Positions 1 through 46,625 of a DNA stretch of 46,626 bases are shown in pieces. The DNA is from a virus: the UHGV virus genome UHGV-0207793, one strand, 5' to 3'. Position numbers and translations under genes: made by a program. Below the pieces are notes generated by a model, which was given only the letters and a program-made list of their open reading frames with translations, was not told the DNA's origin and ran no database searches. The number at the start of each line of letters is the position of its first letter. The stretch's first letter is position 1.

Positions 1-8
1 ATTAAGTC

Positions 9-56
9 GGAACTGATAGTTCACGCAAGTGATATTATGATTGAACACATGGTTCA
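9..56. promoter_or_regulatory. OR operator-like sites GGAACTGATAGTTCA (9-23) and TGAACACATGGTTCA (42-56)
   Basis: TGAAC-N5-GTTCA palindromes; second overlaps the first ATG of cI, so cI may start at the second ATG (49). Confidence 0.35.
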
Positions 57-759
57 CGAAGAAAGAGCGCGAAAAGAATTTTCTCTGAGGCTAGCGCTGG
101 CCTGCGATAAAGCTGGATTGATGCCACACGGTCGCCAGGCTGAGATCGCCAAGAGAATGAAGTTGACACCGAAGGCCGTGAGCAAATGGTTTAACGGGGA
201 GTCGATACCAAGGCGGGGAACGCTCCAGGCGTTAGCGTCTCATATAGGCACGTCTGCATCGTACCTGCTTGGCGATGTTGACGAGGATGGTATTGAACCA
301 GGATCGGCATCCAATCGAAAAGACGTCTTTAGAATTGACCTCTTGGATATCGCCGTCAGCGCCGGTCCAGGGGTGATAAATCAGGAATTCGTTGAGATTC
401 TCCGCTCCGTTGAATATGCGCCAGCTGAGGCTAACCATATGTTTGATGGGCGCAAAGCTGAGAACATCAGGATTATCAACGTCCGCGGAGACAGTATGTC
501 AGGTACGATTGAGCCAGGAGATCTGTTGTTCGTCGATGTCAGCGTAAGGAAGTTTGACGGCGATGGAATATACGCCTTTTTGTACGATGACACTGCTCAC
601 GTTAAACGCTTGCAGAAGATGAAGGACAAGCTGCTGGTTATATCGGATAACAAGAGCTATGCCCCTTGGGAACCGATCGAGAAAGACGAGATGAACCGGG
701 TGTTCGTGTTCGGCAAGGTGATCGGCAGCATGCCGCAGACGTACAGGAAGCATGGGTAA
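37..759 (+). CDS. cI: CI-type prophage repressor (N-terminal HTH, C-terminal S24 LexA-like autopeptidase)
   Basis: 240-aa ORF; HTH-like segment QAEIAKRMKLTPKAVSKWFNG; S24 motifs VRGDSMSGTIEPGDLLFVD with a downstream Lys (VKRL); divergent from the cro-like gene across the window ends. Confidence 0.85.
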   Translation: MIEHMVHEERARKEFSLRLALACDKAGLMPHGRQAEIAKRMKLTPKAVSKWFNGESIPRRGTLQALASHIGTSASYLLGDVDEDGIEPGSASNRKDVFRIDLLDIAVSAGPGVINQEFVEILRSVEYAPAEANHMFDGRKAENIRIINVRGDSMSGTIEPGDLLFVDVSVRKFDGDGIYAFLYDDTAHVKRLQKMKDKLLVISDNKSYAPWEPIEKDEMNRVFVFGKVIGSMPQTYRKHG

Positions 760-781
760 AGCCTTAGCACGCAGAGGAAGC

Positions 782-901
782 ATGTCTGATCTGATTATCC
801 CAATACTCATTACTTTGCTAATTGTCGGACTGGTTGGGATAGTGCTCAGGTTGGAGAAGATTTTCTTTAAGCGAAGGGATGATCGTGATGACTTTGAGTG
901 A
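782..901 (+). CDS. 39-aa single-TM peptide (MSDLIIPILITLLIVGLVGIVLRLEKIFFKRRDDRDDFE), hok/type-I-toxin-like architecture
   Basis: ATG preceded by GAGGAAG; hydrophobic helix followed by a charged tail; lies between two 29-bp direct repeats immediately after cI. Confidence 0.4.
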   Translation: MSDLIIPILITLLIVGLVGIVLRLEKIFFKRRDDRDDFE

Positions 902-978
902 GCCAGACCGGTAGTTCGATGTGTTTTTGGTAATGCCGCAGACGTACAGGAAGCATGGGTAGCTAGGCCGGAGGAATT

Positions 979-1413
979 ATGCAAGTTAACCTAGAAAGAA
1001 TATCATTTATAACACCTTTTTCTGATAGTGAGGACCAGACACAGCCAAAGCTTAGTTTTGAGTGCGTGAACTTCCCCGCTCAGTTTTCGATAAATTTCCG
1101 GGTGGGAATGGTAGGTTTGAAGCCAAATACTCGCTATCAACTCGGACTGTTTGTTATACCAGCTCATTTATTTATTAAAGAGGGGCAGGAATTTCAACTT
1201 CCTGACGGCACTCAGGAATCTGTTTCTGTTAACATTGATACTAAAGACAGCAACATGGCGACGGGTGCCAGTGGACAGGTTGTCATTACTCTAAACGAAA
1301 TGCGCCTCCCTGGTAAGGGGCTGTATAGTGTGACTGGCGTCTTACACGCCAACGATTCGATAAAAACCGTGCTTCATAAAAACGAGTCATTTTTCACTGT
1401 TGATAAATTATGA
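979..1413 (+). CDS. hypothetical 144-aa protein, first gene of a cI-linked accessory pair (rexA position)
   Basis: ORF with strong RBS GGAGGAATT-ATG; AT-rich relative to flanks; stop overlaps start of next gene (ATGA). Confidence 0.5.
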   Translation: MQVNLERISFITPFSDSEDQTQPKLSFECVNFPAQFSINFRVGMVGLKPNTRYQLGLFVIPAHLFIKEGQEFQLPDGTQESVSVNIDTKDSNMATGASGQVVITLNEMRLPGKGLYSVTGVLHANDSIKTVLHKNESFFTVDKL

Positions 1414-2057
1414 GTGACGATAAAGAATCAAAAAATCAAGAGAATCAGAGCGCGAGACCAAATAGCCTAAGGAGGCTGAAAGTTATCGGTGGCTCAGATT
1501 TCGATGCTGAATTTGATAATTCCTCTGAGAAGGTGCAAGATCACTTCATAACGTCGCATACTTCGGAGCGAGAAGTGGATAGGATTAGCAGAGAAGAACT
1601 TGAAGCAAGGCTGTCCGCCAATAAAGCGGAAATGGAATCAATAGCCTCTTCAATTCGAGTAGACATGGCCTTAGCCAGAGAAAATACCAATGTCCAGTTC
1701 GCAAATCTCTCCTCCGCAATTAATTCTATCTCTTCAAAAATTGACGGGAAGATGGATAGTGTAGATGGAGAAATGAAAGCAATAACTGGTAAGTTTGATG
1801 GCATCCATGGTCAGATAACTGGCCTGAACACAGCCATTAGCGGAATCCAGTCAGGCATATCTACGCGACTTGCAATTTTTAGCGTAATTATCGCTGTGAT
1901 TGTCGCCTTGCCTGGGATTATCTCCTCATTTAAGGACTCTCCAGCTAAGTCTGATGATAATCCTTCACCCTTGATTATTCAGATGCCAGCGCAGCAACAA
2001 AATCAACAACCCGCCCCCCAAAACCAACAGAAAGCCTCGCCAAATCAGCATAAGTAG
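1410..2057 (+). CDS. hypothetical coiled-coil protein with C-terminal transmembrane anchor and Q/P-rich tail (rexB position)
   Basis: 215-aa ORF; heptad-like repeats (SAINSISSKIDGK, MKAITGKFDG, GQITGLNTAISGIQSG); hydrophobic segment LAIFSVIIAVIVALPGIISSF; translationally coupled to upstream ORF; followed by an intrinsic terminator. Confidence 0.55.
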   Translation: MSDDKESKNQENQSARPNSLRRLKVIGGSDFDAEFDNSSEKVQDHFITSHTSEREVDRISREELEARLSANKAEMESIASSIRVDMALARENTNVQFANLSSAINSISSKIDGKMDSVDGEMKAITGKFDGIHGQITGLNTAISGIQSGISTRLAIFSVIIAVIVALPGIISSFKDSPAKSDDNPSPLIIQMPAQQQNQQPAPQNQQKASPNQHK

Positions 2058-2082
2058 CCCGGCCACCGCGCCGGGTTTTTAT
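2058..2082 (+). terminator. rho-independent terminator ending the cI-cargo operon (tImm-like)
   Basis: stem cccggc / gccggg with 6-nt loop followed by TTTTT. Confidence 0.6.
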
Positions 2083-2224
2083 TGCCCTACCATTCCCTCG
2101 GCAGCATCAGCACGGCTAGCACCAACTTAATTACTATGCGCCCACCAAACTAAACATAACGCAAAAATAAATATACTTTAAGTTCATTAACTTACCTGAA
2201 TATGAACTATCCACAAATCAAAAA

Positions 2225-2267
2225 TGTACTTTTGGTACTTTACAATGATGAACCATTAGTACATTAT
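2225..2267 (+). promoter_or_regulatory. putative OL/pL: two 15-bp operator-like sites (TGTACttttgGTACT, TGAACcattaGTACA) 9 bp apart, overlapping -35 TTTACA / -10 CATTAT
   Basis: AT-rich 240-bp non-coding gap; sites resemble those between cro and cI (TGAAC-N5-GT(T/A)CA); 17-bp promoter spacing. Confidence 0.4.
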
Positions 2268-2346
2268 CATCTCATCCAAACAACAACGTTGGCGCCGGTA
2301 ATAGGTAACAACGCTCCGTTAGCCGCGATAAGGCAAAGGTGAAGAG

Positions 2347-2463
2347 ATGATCCGCGAAGAAGATAAAACTGAGTGGTTTAAGTTTCTGGCACACGCATTC
2401 GCCATCGTCGTATGCGTACTGGTAGCAAGCGCGTTCTGCCTGATGCCTGGTGGTTCAGCATGA
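2347..2463 (+). CDS. 38-aa hydrophobic peptide, first gene after putative pL
   Basis: RBS AGGTGAAGAG-ATG; MIREEDKTEWFKFLAHAFAIVVCVLVASAFCLMPGGSA; ATGA overlap with next ORF. Confidence 0.35.
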   Translation: MIREEDKTEWFKFLAHAFAIVVCVLVASAFCLMPGGSA

Positions 2464-2570
2464 GCAGAAACGGCATTCGTTCACTGATTTACTGCCTGCT
2501 GATCTGCGGCGTTATCTGGACAGCGTTGATTATCAAAATTCTGCACGTTACGGGGGTGTTCAATGGCTAA
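2460..2570 (+). CDS. 36-aa hydrophobic peptide (MSRNGIRSLIYCLLICGVIWTALIIKILHVTGVFNG)
   Basis: translationally coupled to preceding peptide; single predicted TM helix. Confidence 0.3.
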   Translation: MSRNGIRSLIYCLLICGVIWTALIIKILHVTGVFNG

Positions 2571-2757
2571 CTCAATTCCTAACAACGGACGAGCCGTGAT
2601 GATGCGTAATCGCCGTACTGGCGCCGCCTGGCTGGTCAGCTTCGACTATCGCGACGGCAGCTACTGGCATGAGCCGCAGGGAAATCTGCGCCACATCCGC
2701 CGGCCATATGCTTCACGCAGCATTGAGCCGAACCTGGTTCCAGCCGGGACGCATTAA
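2563..2757 (+). CDS. hypothetical 64-aa basic protein (Arg-rich segment MMRNRRTGAAW)
   Basis: ORF with GGGGGTG RBS; overlaps end of the 36-aa peptide in another frame, so only one of the two may be real. Confidence 0.3.
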   Translation: MANSIPNNGRAVMMRNRRTGAAWLVSFDYRDGSYWHEPQGNLRHIRRPYASRSIEPNLVPAGTH

Positions 2758-2845
2758 CCGCGCATATCAGCGCAAGAATTTAACTGAGCTATCAGGCAGC
2801 CAATACGGTGCCGGGATTCTTACAACCAAATTTCAGGAGCGAGCT

Positions 2846-3130
2846 ATGAACGCATACCGCGCATACGACGCTATCGAAGAACGGAAATGGGCTGAACAGT
2901 CGCTCACCGAAGAGAAGCAAAAGTGGATTGACGATCGGGCGCAGGAAATTATCGACGCCCTGCCGAAAGAGCCGTCAGGCCTGTTCCGCTTCTCTGTACC
3001 GATGGACAAAAGCCCATACGAAGGCCTCCGCAGCGATGCAGCTGGCGAGGCATATAACGATCTCATCTCGGTAGTAGCTTACGCCCAGGCGGAATACGAC
3101 TGGGATCACCGCACCGGCTGCCCGTTTTAA
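2846..3130 (+). CDS. gam: Gam-like host nuclease (RecBCD) inhibitor
   Basis: Starts MNAYRAYDAIEERKWAEQSLTEEKQKW, resembling lambda GamS [30 protein letters not shown]; sits immediately upstream of bet/exo homologues as in lambda; AGGAG RBS. Confidence 0.55.
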   Translation: MNAYRAYDAIEERKWAEQSLTEEKQKWIDDRAQEIIDALPKEPSGLFRFSVPMDKSPYEGLRSDAAGEAYNDLISVVAYAQAEYDWDHRTGCPF

Positions 3131-3146: not shown

Positions 3147-3893
3147 ATGAGCACAGCACTTTCTACAATGGCCGGGAAGCTTGCCTCCCGCCTCGGCATG
3201 GATGCCGGAACTGACCTGATGAACACTCTGAAAAATACAGCATTTAAGGGTGGGAATGTCACTGATGAGCAGTTCACGGCACTGCTGATCGTCGCCAACC
3301 AGTACGGACTGAATCCGTGGACAAAAGAGATTTATGCATTCCCGGATAAAGGCGGAATTGTTCCAGTGGTCGGCGTTGACGGCTGGGCTCGAATCATCAA
3401 CGAACATCCTCAGTTTGATGGAATGGAGTTTGCCTACGACAAGGAAGAAGGCGCGTGTACCTGCAAGATATACCGGAAAGACCGCACACACCCGACCATC
3501 GTCACTGAGTACATGGGAGAGTGCAAACGCAACACTCAGCCATGGCAGTCCCACCCTACCCGTATGCTTCGTCACAAGACGCTGATCCAGTGTGCGCGTC
3601 TCGCATTTGGGTTTGCTGGCATCTTCGATCAGGACGAAGCCGAGCGTGTCATTGAAGGGAGTTCGGCAGAGGTTCATGTAGGGCATGAATCTGATAGTCG
3701 CCGCCCGGAACTAATCGCAAAAGGCGAGTCTGCCGCACGCCTTGGAACTATTAAGTATCAGGAATTCTGGGTGGCGTTAAGCGCAGAAGAGAAACAGGTT
3801 ATCGGCGCGGTTGAGAAGCGTCGCATGTATGACATGAGCCTTGCAGTCGACAACGCAGAACCTGTCGATGCCGCAGCGCCGGAGGATAAATGA
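3147..3893 (+). CDS. bet: RecT/Bet-family single-strand annealing protein
   Basis: 248-aa ORF; RecT-like core (GGNVTDEQFTALLIVANQYGLNPWTKEIYAF); followed by and overlapping a YqaJ exonuclease. Confidence 0.85.
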   Translation: MSTALSTMAGKLASRLGMDAGTDLMNTLKNTAFKGGNVTDEQFTALLIVANQYGLNPWTKEIYAFPDKGGIVPVVGVDGWARIINEHPQFDGMEFAYDKEEGACTCKIYRKDRTHPTIVTEYMGECKRNTQPWQSHPTRMLRHKTLIQCARLAFGFAGIFDQDEAERVIEGSSAEVHVGHESDSRRPELIAKGESAARLGTIKYQEFWVALSAEEKQVIGAVEKRRMYDMSLAVDNAEPVDAAAPEDK

Positions 3894-4513
3894 TGGAACA
3901 ACGCACCCCAGAATGGTTTGCCGCTCGCTGCGGAAAAGTTACAGCCAGCCGCCTTGCTGACGTCATGGCCAGAACCAAGTCTGGCTATGCAGCAAGCCGA
4001 CAGAACTACATGGCCGAGCTGATTTGCCAACGCCTCACCGGGAAGCTTGAAGAAGGTTTCTCCAACGCCGCAATGATGCGCGGAACAGAACTCGAGCCGG
4101 TAGCGCGCGAAATGTATGCGCTGAATGAGTTCGATGCCGAAATCACTGAGGTGGGGCTTATCGATCACCCAACTATACCAGGATTCGCAGCAAGCCCTGA
4201 TGGGCTTGTTAATGGTGATGGGCTTATCGAAATTAAGTGCCCCAACACCTGGACTCATCTTGAGACCTTAAAAACTGGCGAGCCAAAACGCCAGTACCTG
4301 CTGCAGATGCACGCTCAGATGATGTGCACAGGGCGTAAATGGTGTGATTTCGTTAGTTTCGACGATCGTCTACCGCCAGACCTCGCCTATTTCAAAAAGC
4401 GCATTCACTTCGACGAAGCACTGGCAAATGAGATTGAGTCCGAAGTGAAAAAGTTCCTGGAAGAGCTGGAGAAAGAAATTTCCAGCATAAAAAACCACGA
4501 CCATGCCGCATGA
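3890..4513 (+). CDS. exo: YqaJ-type viral recombination exonuclease (lambda Exo functional analogue)
   Basis: N-terminus MEQRTPEWFAARCGKVTASRLADVMA typical of the YqaJ family; ATGA overlap with RecT gene. Confidence 0.85.
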   Translation: MMEQRTPEWFAARCGKVTASRLADVMARTKSGYAASRQNYMAELICQRLTGKLEEGFSNAAMMRGTELEPVAREMYALNEFDAEITEVGLIDHPTIPGFAASPDGLVNGDGLIEIKCPNTWTHLETLKTGEPKRQYLLQMHAQMMCTGRKWCDFVSFDDRLPPDLAYFKKRIHFDEALANEIESEVKKFLEELEKEISSIKNHDHAA

Positions 4514-5069
4514 GAAAGGCAGGCACGAAAAGAGGTGCGCAATGACTGATTATGGCGGATCGAAAACTCCAAAAAATGAACGTGACTACTGGCAAACGCC
4601 GATTGAAATTTTCAACGCGCTCGACCGCGAGTTTGGCTTCTGGCTGGATGCTGCAGCCTCTGAGAGTAATGCGCTATGCGCTCACTACCTCACTGAGCTG
4701 GATGACTCGCTGAACAGCGAATGGACGTCGTACGGCGCGATATGGTGTAACCCGCCCTATTCCGATATTGGGCCGTGGGTAGAAAAGGCTGCTGAGCAAT
4801 CCAGGGCGCAGTCTCAGGCTGTAGTGATGTTGTTACCGGCTGACATTTCTACCGGCTGGTTTATTTCAGCCATGCAATCAGCTGATGAACTCAGACTCAT
4901 AACCGGCGGCCGTGTTCAGTTTGTTCCGGCATCCGTTACAGGAAAGCGAAAGAGCAACCCCAAAGGCTCGCTCCTGTTTATCTGGCGCCCGTACATCACC
5001 CCGCGACACATCATCACGTCTGTATCGCTGGCTGAGTTAAAGCGGATCGGGAATCTGGAGGCAGCATGA
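4503..5069 (+). CDS. phage DNA N6-adenine methyltransferase (Dam-like)
   Basis: motif IWCNPPYSD (NPPY catalytic motif); probable true start at MTDYGGSK (about 4542). Confidence 0.8.
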   Translation: MPHEKGRHEKRCAMTDYGGSKTPKNERDYWQTPIEIFNALDREFGFWLDAAASESNALCAHYLTELDDSLNSEWTSYGAIWCNPPYSDIGPWVEKAAEQSRAQSQAVVMLLPADISTGWFISAMQSADELRLITGGRVQFVPASVTGKRKSNPKGSLLFIWRPYITPRHIITSVSLAELKRIGNLEAA

Positions 5070-5287
5070 CGCCAGAAGAAAAAGAAAACGCTCTCCGCGC
5101 CCAGGCTCGTCGCTGCGCAGAAGAGATAACCAAAGCGATGAGCGTAAAGCCTAAACCTAAGTGGAACGCTGTATGCCCCCCCATCCTTCGCAAGCACTAC
5201 GAGAAGGTAAAGCCGATGGGTGTCAGTCTGGTGAAATTTGTCAGTGTTATTGGCCGCATGAATGGTCGGTATGGAGTGGAATCATGA
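5066..5287 (+). CDS. hypothetical 73-aa protein
   Basis: ORF translationally coupled on both sides (ATGA overlaps). Confidence 0.4.
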   Translation: MTPEEKENALRAQARRCAEEITKAMSVKPKPKWNAVCPPILRKHYEKVKPMGVSLVKFVSVIGRMNGRYGVES

Positions 5288-6407: not shown

Positions 6408-6743
6408 ATGGCGTCAGACAAACCGATAACAGCTCAGCAGGCCGCCGACTTACTCATCGTGTCGGCGCGGGTAATCTACCGCCTGATTGAGTCAGGAGAA
6501 CTCGCCGGCCGCAAGGTCGGCAACAAGTACAGAACGACCGAAGCGGCATGTATTGCGTATTTGTCATCCCCGCAGGAAACTAAACGAGCGAACGCGGGTG
6601 AGCATAAAGGAGATATTTTATGTCCATCACCCTCAGAGGCGGCATGTGGCACTGTCATTTCTTTACGCCGTCAGGGAAAAGAGTTAGGCGATCTCTTGGC
6701 ACGGGGGACAAAAAGCAGGCGCAGGAGCTCCACGATAAGCTAA
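6408..6743 (+). CDS. xis: excisionase / AlpA-like HTH DNA-binding protein
   Basis: [35 protein letters not shown] immediately upstream of int; the ORF runs 124 nt into int, so the true stop is uncertain. Confidence 0.5.
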
Positions 6744-7783
6744 AGGCTGAAGCATGGCGGGTTGACCAGATCGGCGACCTGCCTGTCAGAACCTTCGAAG
6801 AGTGCTGTATCCGGTGGCTGCGGGAGAAAGACCACAAGCGGTCGCTGGATGATGACAAAACCAAAATTGAGTTTTGGCTGCAGCATTTTTCCGGCCGTGA
6901 TGTATCAAAAATAACGGCGGAGGAAATTCACGAAGCCGTTAACGGGATGATCAACCGTAAGCACCTGCAGGTATGGGAGAGTAAACGTGATGCCGCGTTG
7001 AGGAAGGGTAAGCCGATACCGGAGTACAAACCACGGCAGGTTTCGCAGGCTACGAAGGCGCAACACCTTTCCTTCATTCGATCCCTTCTCAGGGCCGCGG
7101 CGAATGACTGGGGCTGGATAAAAACAGCTCCTGTTATCAAAACCCGCAAGCCGATCAGTAAGCGGATACGGTGGCTGACCAGAGAAGAAGCTGAGCGGTT
7201 GATCGAGTGCATGCCGGAGAGCATTAAGCCAGTGGTGATATTTGCACTGGCAACCGGCCTGCGCCGCTCAAACATCATCGGGCTTGAGTGGCAGCAGGTC
7301 GATATGCAGAGAAAGGTTGCATGGGTAAATCCGGAGAACGCAAAAGCGGGCAAGGCGATTGGCGTAGCTCTGAATGATACCGCATGCAGGGTATTAAGGG
7401 ATCAGATAGGGAAGCATTCCCGGTGGGTGTTCGTTCACACCACGGCAAAACATCGCCCGGATGGAACACTGACGCCCGCGGTTAGAAAAATGCGTGTGGA
7501 TGACAATAACGCCTGGCGCGCCGGGTTGAAAAAAGCGGGGATCGAGGATTTCCGTTTTCACGACCTCCGGCACACCTGGGCGAGCTGGCTTATTCAGTCC
7601 GGCGTCCCGCTTTCTGTCTTACAGGAAATGGGAGGATGGGAGAGCATCGAGATGGTACGTCGTTATGCTCACCTGGCGCCGAACCACCTGACCGAACACG
7701 CACGGAAAATTGACGCCATTTTTGGCGCTAGCGACACAAATACGACACAAGGAGGAAATCAGGCTGGATTAAAACTGGCGTAA
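6620..7783 (+). CDS. int: tyrosine site-specific integrase
   Basis: 387-aa ORF; C-terminal catalytic region with [15 protein letters not shown] and MVRRYAHL (R..H-x-x-R..Y); strong RBS AAAGGAGA; adjacent to att. Confidence 0.9.
7732..7750 (-). repeat. arm-type repeats (TTGTGTCGT x2) on P side of attP
   Basis: CGACACAA twice, 11 bp apart; same motif repeated in opposite orientation right of the core. Confidence 0.4.
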
Positions 7784-7921: not shown

Positions 7922-8153
7922 TTTGAATACATCCCTGTCTTTATCGTGCATTCCTGTCACGCCACAACTACGACACACCCGTCACGCGAATTCTCCCAGG
8001 ATCAGGATTCCATCCGTTCCATCTCCTGAGATGCCAAAATCTGCGAGCAGCTATCCAGAACGCAAACTCGCCGATTTACCTCATCATCAGAACGGCGCAT
8101 CATTAGCACGCTAGTTAATCATGTAATTTTCGGTGCGCACCACTCTTTCATGG

Positions 8154-8471
8154 TTAAACAGCTACGCTATCGCTTCGCACATCACAAATGACATGCGTCA
8201 CAACGCCGGCGACAGTGACATCGTCCAGGGCCTCGCCTTCTATTGCTTCGCCATCTTCGGTTATCAGCGACCGCCCTCTCAGCGTGGCAAGTTCAGTCCC
8301 GCCGCCGTGCTGGATAAGAACCTGACTACCCTGCTTTGGCTTCAGGGAAATATCCAGCACAACATAACCGCTATCCCTTTCGAAAACGCGAGTGTTAGGC
8401 CCGACATTGCAGATCGAGTTAACGGACAGTCGCTGCTCGACGTAGTCCGTCGCGGGTGAAGGAAAGCCCAT
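8154..8471 (-). CDS. UmuD'-like (HumD-like) S24-family translesion-synthesis accessory protein, begins at the UmuD cleavage-site equivalent
   Basis: MGFPSPATDYVEQRL matches UmuD' N-terminus GFPSPAADYVEQRI; C-terminus EALDDVTVAGVVTHVICDVR matches EDTLDVFGVVIHVVKAMR; TAATG coupling to upstream gene. Confidence 0.6.
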   Translation of the reverse strand: MGFPSPATDYVEQRLSVNSICNVGPNTRVFERDSGYVVLDISLKPKQGSQVLIQHGGGTELATLRGRSLITEDGEAIEGEALDDVTVAGVVTHVICDVRSDSVAV

Positions 8472-8710
8472 TAGATCACCCTCCCCATGTTGGCCATCAT
8501 CCACAGTCTGTTTTCGCTATGGTCCGGCGTCTTATCGACAAAATACGTCTGCTCGCGAGCGATCCAGGAGTTCGCCTCCACCTCGGTAAAGTGAATGCCG
8601 CGCCGGCGAAGCGCAGTAACGAAGTCGCGGGTGTGAAGGTACTGGTATCCTTTGGCGTTGCGCAATACCGACTCGCGGAAAGCCGCGGCGATGTCTGACT
8701 GTCGAAGCAT
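8471..8710 (-). CDS. hypothetical 79-aa protein, first gene of LexA-box-controlled operon
   Basis: internal ATG with GAGGG RBS; the tool's longer ORF (to 8755) would contain the LexA box; no recognisable family. Confidence 0.5.
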   Translation of the reverse strand: MLRQSDIAAAFRESVLRNAKGYQYLHTRDFVTALRRRGIHFTEVEANSWIAREQTYFVDKTPDHSENRLWMMANMGRVI

Positions 8711-8728
8711 GATCTGCCCTCTGATGAA

Positions 8729-8748
8729 TACTGTTTTTATATACAGTA
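8729..8748 (-). promoter_or_regulatory. LexA (SOS) box TACTGTTTTTATATACAGTA overlapping putative -10
   Basis: perfect CTGT-N8-ACAG with AT-rich spacer, 19 bp upstream of the 8710 start; -35 TTGATC 17 bp upstream of TACTGT. Confidence 0.6.
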
Positions 8749-9048
8749 GTTTCATTGGAAGATCTGATCAATACAGGTTACAGCTATCGATCAGACGCAC
8801 CGACGCAACGCAATGATTTTAAGAGGCTGGCAGGTACTTATATAGCGTCTTCACATTCACTCCTATCACATCGGCTACCTGCTGACGAATTGCGCCGTTG
8901 TCCCGTACGGCGATTTGTCTCCTATAAATACCGCCTACACAGTGATTCCATTAAGATAAAAGACTTAAAAACATAGAGGCCGTCACGCAAAAAAAAACCA
9001 ACAACATATTGATAAATAAATGAAATTATAATAATTATTGGGTTTAAT

Positions 9049-9078
9049 TTGTAAATTTCTTTAGGTGCTGTTTATAAT
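9049..9078 (+). promoter_or_regulatory. putative sigma70 promoter for the sugar-transferase gene (-35 TTGTAA, -10 TATAAT)
   Basis: 18-bp spacer in an extremely AT-rich stretch. Confidence 0.3.
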
Positions 9079-9138
9079 TTGAAACTTACTGCAACAAAGC
9101 GTATACTCCATGCATCCACTGCGAGCAGGGTTCATGAA

Positions 9139-9729
9139 ATGCTTAAAATGAGATTTTTCGACATTTTGATAGCATCTATATTTCTGATAATTGCTTGTCC
9201 GTTTTTTATCATTCTATCTATTTTAATATGGACATCAGGATCAAAGCCATTTTTCAAGCATAAACGAGTTGGCCTCAACGGGAAGGAATTTTACTGTTTA
9301 AAATTCACATCAATGAAAGGCCTGAATGAAATAGAAGAAGCAGAACAAGAGCGAGTTATATTTGAACTGGATCATTTTGGCAAAGTCAATAATGATCCAA
9401 GAGTAACAAAAATAGGTAATTTCATCAGAAAGACAAGTATTGACGAAACCCCACAATTTTTTAATGTTCTAAAAGGAGATATGTCGCTGATTGGCCCCAG
9501 ACCTATTACTAAGGCAGAGATGAAGATTTATGGTACAAAGATAAAGTCATACTTATCAGTCAAGCCCGGAATCACTGGATTATGGCAAATATCAGGGAGA
9601 AGCAATACAACATACTCTCGCAGAGTGGCAATTGATCATTATTACGCATTAAAAAGAACAAGAAGGATGAAAATAATGATAATGATGAAAACCGTATATG
9701 TCGTTTTATTTATGAAAGGGGCTCAATAG
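9139..9729 (+). CDS. small monotopic phosphoglycosyl transferase (Bac_transf / PglC-WbaP C-terminal type, undecaprenyl-phosphate sugar-1-phosphate transferase)
   Basis: FDILIASIFLIIACPFFIILSILIW membrane segment, KFTSM, DPRVTKIGNFIRKTSIDETPQFFNVLKGDMSLIGPRP, PGITGLWQISGRS; very AT-rich island; the tool's TTG start at 9079 is unlikely. Confidence 0.8.
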   Translation: MLKMRFFDILIASIFLIIACPFFIILSILIWTSGSKPFFKHKRVGLNGKEFYCLKFTSMKGLNEIEEAEQERVIFELDHFGKVNNDPRVTKIGNFIRKTSIDETPQFFNVLKGDMSLIGPRPITKAEMKIYGTKIKSYLSVKPGITGLWQISGRSNTTYSRRVAIDHYYALKRTRRMKIMIMMKTVYVVLFMKGAQ

Positions 9730-9777
9730 CAGCCCCAACGAAAACCATCACAAATAATAAAACATCATGAATTTATA

Positions 9778-36863: not shown

Positions 36864-36940
36864 TGGTGCACCATTCAGGACTCGAACCTGAAACCGATAG
36901 CTTAGAAGGCTATTGCTCTCTCCGGTTGAGCTAATGGCGC
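36864..36940 (-). tRNA. tRNA-Arg (anticodon UCU)
   Basis: GCGCCATTAGCTCAACCGGAGAGAGCAATAGCCTTCTAAGCTATCGGTTTCAGGTTCGAGTCCTGAATGGTGCACCA folds as a cloverleaf with CTTCTAA anticodon loop. Confidence 0.8.
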
Positions 36941-36945
36941 TAATT

Positions 36946-37020
36946 TGGCGGGACAGGAAGGATTCGAACCTTCGACCATTCGGTTAACAGCCGAACGCAC
37001 AACCGCTGTGCTTCTGACCC
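36946..37020 (-). tRNA. tRNA-Asn-like (anticodon GUU), one acceptor-stem mismatch
   Basis: GGGTCAGAAGCACAGCGGTTGTGCGTTCGGCTGTTAACCGAATGGTCGAAGGTTCGAATCCTTCCTGTCCCGCCA; D, anticodon and T arms pair; T4:T mismatch in acceptor stem. Confidence 0.6.
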
Positions 37021-37112: not shown

Positions 37113-37646
37113 AGAAGGTAGGAAATACTGATTCTTCAACGGTTCGAGGCGCACCTAATAGTCCGAGCTACCGATTTACCAGGAGAGCGCTCGTTTTCCG
37201 TTACTACCTTTTAAACATAGCTGGAGAAGCCGAAACGGCAACCCCACTACCAAATAGCTTATGTAGCATTGCATTATGGTGCCGGGTGCCTCCCGGTGAG
37301 CATGTCCCAGTCGACATGGCCCGCGCTGCATTTACAGATCACTGTAAGTGACTGGTCGCCCCTCCGCATAGGGGGATTCACCACACGAATAGATTAACAA
37401 CATGTTAATTTTCTGGTCAATAAGATATAAGCAAATGATGACATGCAGTTTTCTTATTGCTGAGTAACTTCAATCTGGTTCAGGGGTCTGCGCGTGTAGG
37501 GCTTTAACGTGTCGTGCGGCACGTCTCTACCCAAGAGCCCTGACCGGATCGAAGGCATAAAAAAGCCCCGCACAATGGCGAGGCTCGGTGTTCTGATAGG
37601 TCAAACGCAAATACGGCAACCTACACTAAATATATTGCTCATTTGT

Positions 37647-46594: not shown

Positions 46595-46610
46595 GTTTAA
46601 CCCTCAATAA

Positions 46611-46625
46611 TGAACTGTAAGTACA
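46611..46625. promoter_or_regulatory. OR operator-like site TGAACTGTAAGTACA
   Basis: 15-bp near-palindrome sharing half-site TGAAC with sites at 9-23, 42-56 and in OL. Confidence 0.35.

Follow-up and report, generated by a model that had tools for sequence, protein, structure and literature searches.

The accessory-gene slot behind cI

The sequence analysed here, virus genome UHGV-0207793 (46,626 nucleotides, nt; "the window" denotes this whole stretch), is a lambdoid phage genome of the Klebsiella type in circularly permuted form; by DNA, it is closest to Klebsiella prophages such as phage 2 LV-2017 and Kp4856-1. Our subject is the block of three genes behind its repressor gene, cI, which encode a 39-amino-acid (aa) peptide with one transmembrane (TM) segment, a 144-aa protein and a 215-aa coiled-coil membrane protein; the last two are called the pair, or the cassette, below. 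A first-pass annotation had read all three genes as a single exclusion or abortive-infection system in the position of rexAB, and its gene layout, including the ATGA coupling of the 144-aa and 215-aa genes, is present as described. The block occupies the accessory-gene slot of the lambdoid immunity region, between cI and oL/pL. Comparison with relatives indicates that it is made of two modules, and we consider an anti-phage function of the pair to be plausible. The features of the locus are as follows.

37-759, + strand: cI-type prophage repressor gene (HTH_3 and Peptidase_S24 in Pfam; phrog_4 at 1.8e-57)
730-758, + strand: 29-nt repeat, copy 1, the true 3′ end of cI (exact repeat)
782-901, + strand: gene of the 39-aa single-TM small membrane protein (hydropathy, conserved open reading frame)
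933-961, + strand: 29-nt repeat, copy 2, a remnant of the cI 3′ end and left joint of the cargo (exact repeat; relatives)
979-1413, + strand: 144-aa partner protein, phrog_5893 (ribosome-binding site GGAGGA)
1410-2057, + strand: 215-aa coiled-coil inner-membrane protein, predicted to be tail-anchored, phrog_5820 (profile, alignment, hydropathy)
2056-2086, + strand: intrinsic terminator, Timm equivalent and right joint of the cassette (stem, fold energy, shared position)
2172-2186, 2225-2239 and 2249-2263, + strand: putative oL operators (pattern match only)
2239-2267, + strand: pL-like promoter TTTACA-17-CATTAT (pattern match only; overlaps the putative oL cluster)
46611-46625 (TGAACTGTAAGTACA), 9-23 and 42-56, no strand assigned: putative oR cluster (pattern match, 0-1 mismatch)

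We place the block inside the immunity region because operator clusters bracket it, with the terminator and the pL-like promoter just downstream. A search of the whole 46.6 kb for TGWAC-N5-GTWCA with at most one mismatch returns nine operator-like sites, six of which fall in the two clusters on either side of the block, and the pL-like promoter is directed into the recT/exonuclease operon. On the other side of cI, the divergent cro gene (minus strand) ends at 46595, at the permuted end of the window. A strong terminator had been claimed at 2058-2082, and we observe it as an 8-pair stem with 6 G-C pairs followed by a T run (2056-2077, block end 2086), which folds at -18.6 kcal/mol (z -3.3; 0 of 200 shuffles fold as well). 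Together with the placement of the pair between cI and N in coliphages HK244 and HK542, these elements bear out the earlier assignment to a rexAB-equivalent slot.

Transcription of the block is presumed to come from cI, and our scan of the plus strand from 759 to 2056 gives no further convincing terminator or promoter. Its weak entries there are a stem with 3 G-C pairs (1199-1218) and a promoter-like site (1400-1428), and the totals of the scan are at chance level (4 promoters found vs 3.7 expected). The site at 1400-1428 was considered as an analogue of pLit and rejected, as transcription from it would begin downstream of the start codon of the 215-aa gene. At the other end of the operon, the operator-like site at 42-56 is a perfect palindrome, TGAACACATGGTTCA, that lies over the first codons of the annotated cI open reading frame (ORF); cI may thus truly begin at the ATG at 49, or have a leaderless transcript as in lambda. 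Downstream of the pL-like promoter, the first ORF of some size (2563-2757) encodes 64 aa with an arginine-rich N-terminus (MMRNRRTGAAW), and its product may be an N-like antiterminator.

Two independently inherited modules

The 29-nt direct repeat of the cI 3′ end is exact (730-758 = 933-961) and flanks the peptide module. We take it to be a recombination joint because the arrangements in relatives join their cargo at the cI-end remnant. In L011 and L015, the cassette (97-99% identical) lies directly behind cI, such that 933-961 corresponds to the true end of cI and no peptide gene is present, while in L012-L014 a 40-nt remnant of the cI end precedes the cassette. In L003, L010 and L056-L059, we find the peptide, the remnant and then various cargos that start right after the remnant. 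L001 has cI, the peptide and the terminator with the slot between them empty: window positions 917-2058 are absent, and homology resumes at 2059. L001, L003 and L056-L059 thus have the peptide but lack the pair, L011-L015 have a 97-100% identical pair but lack the peptide, and the peptide accompanies the cI 3′ end in many Klebsiella and Escherichia coli prophages irrespective of the cargo downstream. These comparisons indicate that the peptide and the two-gene cassette are inherited independently, as two modules. The earlier view of a single three-gene unit does not survive them, as each part occurs without the other among the relatives.

The cassette, 97-100% identical in itself, is found behind cI alleles that are only 65-92% identical to that of the window. 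Its G+C content is 43.3% vs 51.8% for the window, a value as low as which is reached by 6.4% of same-size windows. Horizontal acquisition, which had been suggested on the grounds of composition, now has direct evidence from the comparison of sibling phages, in which the slot is empty or differently filled. The locus shows presence/absence polymorphism between otherwise collinear phages, together with alternative cargos at the same joints, the pattern of moron or hot-spot cargo.

The 215-aa coiled-coil membrane protein

The ORF of the 215-aa protein overlaps that of the 144-aa protein by ATGA, an overlap that is kept in HK542, L036 and L041. Over residues 1-207, the protein matches phrog_5820 at 6.1e-73, and an exhaustive profile search gathers 316 representatives of its family at E ≤ 1e-3, mostly of 150-270 aa. 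Four regions can be told apart: a variable head (residues 1-59), which is short and probably unstructured, a conserved coiled coil (60-152), a TM segment (153-175) and a proline/glutamine-rich tail (176-215). In the alignment, the coiled coil opens with I-S-R-E-E-L..L.ANKAE and continues in heptads such as KIDGKMDSVDGD.KAI.GKFEGIQGQI.GINTAISGIQSGIS, while the tail carries a conserved QPIIIQVP-like motif. Hydropathy gives one hydrophobic segment (residues 154-172, KD19 2.73) and none at the N-terminus. Because there is no signal peptide and an arginine stands on the N-side of the TM segment, we infer a tail-anchored topology with the N-terminus inside.

Against Pfam, NCBIfam and PADLOC, the 215-aa protein gives only sub-threshold coiled-coil matches. 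Among these, the CCDC90-like family (PF07798; formerly DUF1640, the MCUR1 family) matches 24 of 77 relatives, all of them below threshold: the window protein scores 14.5 bits and individually scanned relatives score 17-26 bits, against a gathering threshold of 33.5. In the individually scanned relatives, the match is colinear from the start of the stalk to the TM segment. The motif at the start of the stalk, [ILVF]-[ST]-[KR]-x-E-L (I-S-R-E-E-L in the window), resembles by eye the β-layer motif described for DUF1640, [aliphatic]-A-T-K-x-[DE]. The known members of this family, which includes MCUR1 and CCDC90B, are mitochondrial scaffold proteins, and the likeness lies in the order of N-terminal head, coiled-coil stalk and C-terminal TM segment, whereas the bit scores (14.5-26 vs the 33.5 cut-off) and the short head set the phage proteins apart. 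We therefore describe the 215-aa protein as DUF1640-like in architecture, and not as a member of the family. Its weak profile matches in the Protein Data Bank (PDB) include several trimeric coiled coils, and the coiled-coil/TM stalk is probably trimeric.

The 144-aa protein

The 144-aa protein matches phrog_5893 at 1.1e-45 over residues 3-143 and has no match in Pfam, NCBIfam or PADLOC. Its family is small (about 21 clusters at 90% identity) and extends over Klebsiella, Enterobacter, Citrobacter, Phytobacter, Serratia and Xenorhabdus. With an alignment of 19 sequences, AlphaFold2 (AF2) models it as a cytoplasmic immunoglobulin (Ig)-like β-sandwich; the model built from the single sequence was unusable (pLDDT 36). 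Structure prediction thus adds a candidate fold for this protein, while profile searches of the PDB give no significant match for it or for the 215-aa protein. Hydropathy finds no hydrophobic segment in the 144-aa protein and a single C-terminal one in its partner, which bears out the proposed pairing of a soluble with a membrane-anchored protein.

The first-pass annotation had recognised neither protein as a known family, which holds in part. Both are already in PHROGs and have been public as hypothetical genes since the HK244 and HK542 deposits, and both PHROGs are annotated as "unknown function". No function is assigned to the pair in Pfam 2025, PADLOC 2023, NCBIfam 2026 or RefSeq 2026, and no paper came up in full-text searches for the PHROG numbers or HK244 locus tags. 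For the proteins of the block, PADLOC-DB 2.0 returns no component match, only coiled-coil noise such as the ZorA tail at E 0.0012.

Exchange of partner and head

Among relatives, the gene upstream of the coiled-coil protein falls into unrelated classes: the 144-aa Ig-like protein, two classes of 84-101 aa, a 112-aa protein with a CxxC...CxxC pattern (phrog_4293) and the phrog_26809 protein of L002. Pfam gives nothing above threshold for the other partner classes, and PHROGs places 3 of 10 scanned partners, all in families without an assigned function. Each partner class occurs with a single head class, and vice versa. Across classes, the core of the membrane protein is 58-86% identical, while the heads are 10-20% and the periplasmic tails 8-42% identical. 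P0008 has a class C-type head, yet its core is 82% identical, and P0088 carries the head type of the window on another core subfamily. As the core is conserved while the heads differ, and as the pairing is one-to-one, the unit of exchange is the partner plus the head, set on a conserved stalk and anchor. This co-variation could reflect a physical interaction between partner and head, or plain linkage of adjacent DNA.

Homologues and genomic context

Among phage records, protein-level homologues of the pair are confined to coliphages HK244 and HK542 (62-68% amino-acid identity by aligned span). The depositors' annotation gives the order cI, two hypothetical genes, Timm, oL/pL and N, and the HK244 record places Timm where the terminator of the window lies; the pair in these phages physically replaces rexAB. 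In the two E. coli loci examined, it stands between a lambda-type cI and N, with "hypothetical protein" as the RefSeq name of both genes. In 43 of 49 loci, the gene immediately upstream, on the same strand, encodes a repressor, as it does in Yersinia, Kosakonia and Providencia (there in a lambdoid prophage inside an IncC plasmid). The HK542-type cassette occurs behind at least six repressor types, and in Yersinia one cassette recurs unchanged in two settings, behind cI and, next to dinI, at the edge of a Mu-like prophage. With few exceptions, the family is found in prophages. Judged by gene order, these scattered placements are the behaviour of autonomous accessory cassettes.

Several of these loci have features of their own. 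In Xenorhabdus (L060, 4159-7417; L009, 1015-4501), the pair follows a tape-measure gene and a gene for a small lipoprotein (DUF6694 in L060) in a myovirus-type tail cluster. Two Yersinia loci (L006, 4214-4588; L043, 2502-2984) have an extra gene between cI and the pair, whose product of 124-160 aa has an N-terminal TM segment and no family match. The E. coli prophage L064 (1851-1931) has a truncated replication gene P and no O, and it has kept cI and the intact pair, perhaps a sign that the cassette is retained while the prophage decays.

Other cargo in the slot

The contents of the slot differ among sibling prophages. In L059 (a prophage of E. coli DY612), a KilA-N protein matching BstA at 1.6e-20 is encoded at 1764-2525 behind the same peptide module. 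L065 has HipA_2 (kinase) and DUF3037 genes (1354-2930) that match the PADLOC candidate PDC-M66A/B, and L003 has a three-gene MqsA-type antitoxin cassette (3595-5111), the third protein of which weakly matches PD-T4-9_C. L002 carries another allele of the pair family of the window, and in L001, as described above, the slot is empty. Owen et al., citing Degnan et al. 2007, describe the cI-N region as a mosaic hot spot that holds rexAB and bstA. On the homology of the occupants seen here, this lineage uses the slot as a hot spot for defence genes. That sibling prophages fill it with BstA, HipA_2 plus DUF3037 and MqsA-type cargo is the best indirect argument that the pair, too, serves defence, and it makes such a role plausible.

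The 39-aa membrane peptide

The peptide gene begins at a conserved ATG at 782, preceded by GAGGAAG. The ORF as listed runs from 752 to 901 (49 aa); we rejected this longer version, as position 752 corresponds to ACG in L001 and to unrelated upstream sequence in L057. Hydropathy shows a single hydrophobic segment (residues 4-22, KD19 3.12). The ORF is conserved in seven relatives, and 24 of its 39 codons vary among the eight sequences, mostly by synonymous or conservative changes; pairwise codon differences amount to 186 synonymous vs 72 non-synonymous. This pattern of substitution indicates that the peptide gene is real and under purifying selection in many lysogens. RefSeq annotation omits it in the E. 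coli matches. The peptide has no significant match in Pfam, PHROG, NCBIfam or PADLOC, and a tblastn search against phages returned nothing, probably owing to low-complexity masking.

The likeness to the Hok/Gef type I toxins, on which the label "hok-like" had been based, is that of a small single-TM peptide. The peptide here differs in having 39 aa without a cysteine-containing periplasmic tail, in its place in the cI operon behind a strong ribosome-binding site, and in its purifying selection in many lysogens. Neither Pfam nor Rfam gives a match that would link the two, the latter with no Hok/Sok or hok-mRNA RNA at gathering thresholds in window positions 1-3000. The label is thus withdrawn, and the peptide is most likely a separate, non-toxic small inner-membrane protein made in lysogens. 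An antisense promoter-like site lies within its ORF (821-794, minus strand; TTAGCA-16-GATAAT with an upstream TG), and RNA from this site would cross the peptide start codon into the cI 3′ end. The -35 and -10 elements of the site are weaker in relatives (e.g., GATAAC in L057), in a scan that is at chance level overall.

A possible anti-phage function and its alternatives

On the evidence of sequence and context, we consider it plausible that the pair is a prophage-encoded anti-phage (exclusion) system, a reading for which belief and doubt are about evenly balanced. The cassette has no room for a promoter of its own because the start codon follows the cI-end remnant after only 17 nt, and it would be transcribed in lysogens by read-through from the cI promoters, as rexAB is. 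Specificity or sensing would lie with a module of the partner and head, on the cytoplasmic side of the inner membrane, and the conserved coiled-coil/TM stalk, probably a trimer, would act on the membrane as the effector. An infecting phage, once sensed, would be stopped by the stalk, which would disturb the membrane or block a step linked to it. More tentatively, and with a clearly lower probability, the pair may found a new defence family in which a DUF1640/MCUR1-like, probably trimeric, stalk is the effector and a swappable partner and head (at least 3-4 partner classes) set the phage cue.

Several observations weigh against a defence function. The pair has no match among the defence families of PADLOC, Pfam and NCBIfam, and the best PDB profile match of the 215-aa protein, the head of the α-pore-forming toxin SmhB, is weak (E 0.026-0.06). 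With one TM helix per chain, there is little to build a channel from. The 215-aa protein has a small family (107 representatives at E ≤ 1e-10), and the HK542-type pair is rare in E. coli (51 of 5,426 complete genomes). In Xenorhabdus, the position after the tape-measure gene, in tail clusters, is not a lysogen-expressed slot, although it fits a moron. Finally, the partner-head co-variation could be due to plain linkage.

Comparison with known systems places the pair nearest, in position, to lambda RexAB. Both lie directly after cI and before Timm and oL/pL, co-oriented with cI, and both consist of two genes for one cytoplasmic and one inner-membrane protein. RexB is a four-TM protein and RexA a DNA-binding dimer, whereas the membrane protein here has one C-terminal TM segment and a long coiled coil, and its soluble partner is a predicted Ig-like sandwich; neither protein matches RexA or RexB in Pfam, PADLOC, NCBIfam or PHROG. 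BstA is likewise cargo behind a repressor gene, with a homologue in the identical slot of L059, but it is a single KilA-N-domain protein without similarity to either protein here. Among actinobacteriophages, Sbash gp30/31 and Butters gp30/31 have been described as two-gene prophage defence pairs expressed near the repressor, each of which pairs a soluble with a membrane protein. Their hosts and proteins differ from those considered here, and the likeness considered is one of gene layout.

Other functions of the pair would account for part of the same evidence. Superinfection exclusion, in which DNA entry or an early membrane-linked step is blocked without killing the cell, would suit the lysogen-expressed slot, the inner-membrane anchor and the short periplasmic tail with its conserved QPIIIQVP-like motif; the prophage exclusion proteins P22 SieA, T4 Imm and HK97 gp15 are small inner-membrane proteins. 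We regard it as unlikely, as nearly all of the mass of the 215-aa protein and the whole partner are predicted to be cytoplasmic and the periplasmic tail is the least conserved part (8-42% identity). To a similar degree, we doubt that the pair is lysogenic-conversion cargo outside defence, acting on the membrane physiology or stress tolerance of the host or on host interaction. Defence is not the function of morons such as lom and bor, the pair has no homology to any defence family, and its DUF1640/CCDC90-like architecture is known from mitochondrial scaffold proteins. However, every recognisable occupant of the slot in siblings is of the defence or toxin-antitoxin type, the swapping of partner and head looks like a change of specificity, and the family is almost confined to prophages.

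An addiction module, in which a toxic membrane protein is neutralised by the 144-aa partner and the prophage is thereby stabilised, is improbable. The tight coupling of the genes with the soluble protein first, the intact pair kept in L064 despite the loss of part of its replication genes and the MqsA-type cassette in the same slot of L003 would all suit it, but no toxin or antitoxin family is matched, and a headless relative (L049) without a small partner is hard to square with an obligatory antidote. A role in the phage's own switch or life cycle, such as biasing the transition from lysogeny to lysis, is slightly more improbable still: the operon position is that of rexAB, and a preprint reports a role of lambda RexA/RexB in this transition, yet the cassette occurs with at least six types of repressor, non-lambdoid prophages carry it too, L001 has nothing in the slot, and we find no DNA-binding features in the pair. 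We give the least credence, and very little, to the idea that the 39-aa peptide is a Hok-like toxin acting together with the pair, all three genes forming one abortive-infection operon. In its favour, these genes are neighbours on one strand with a single terminator, and the antisense promoter-like site (821-794, minus strand) lies inside the peptide ORF; against this, the peptide and the pair occur independently, there is no match to Hok, Sok or another type I toxin, the promoter scan is at chance (4 vs 3.7 expected), and the antisense -10 element is GATAAC in L057.

Other features of the window

Outside the immunity region, the lowest-GC island of the window (8100-9730; 34-37% vs 52% overall) lies between the integrase gene (6620-7783) and a minus-strand ORF of 698 aa. 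It encodes a Bac_transf sugar transferase at 9079-9729 (4.8e-57) and is probably a second cargo locus, possibly for surface-polysaccharide modification. In the late region, Rfam identifies the small RNA STnc100 (37227-37413, minus strand, 81 bits) and, adjoining it, two tRNA genes (36867-36940 and 36949-37020, minus strand).

Implications

The cI-N (or pL) region has long been known as the place of rexAB, and BstA has been added more recently. If the pair is an exclusion system, a third, unrelated two-gene system recurring in this region, with a range that takes in Klebsiella, Escherichia, Enterobacter, Citrobacter, Yersinia, Kosakonia and Providencia, would add a defence family with an unusual layout of a conserved membrane stalk and swappable, proposed sensor modules. 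As HK542 grows on E. coli K-12, an experimental system is ready at hand. The question bears on Klebsiella phage therapy, where prophage-encoded exclusion limits host range, and if the pair does found a new family, this would provide the first function for bacterial DUF1640-like proteins. Should its role lie outside defence, the locus would still illustrate clearly how cargo is exchanged in modules at the cI 3′ end.

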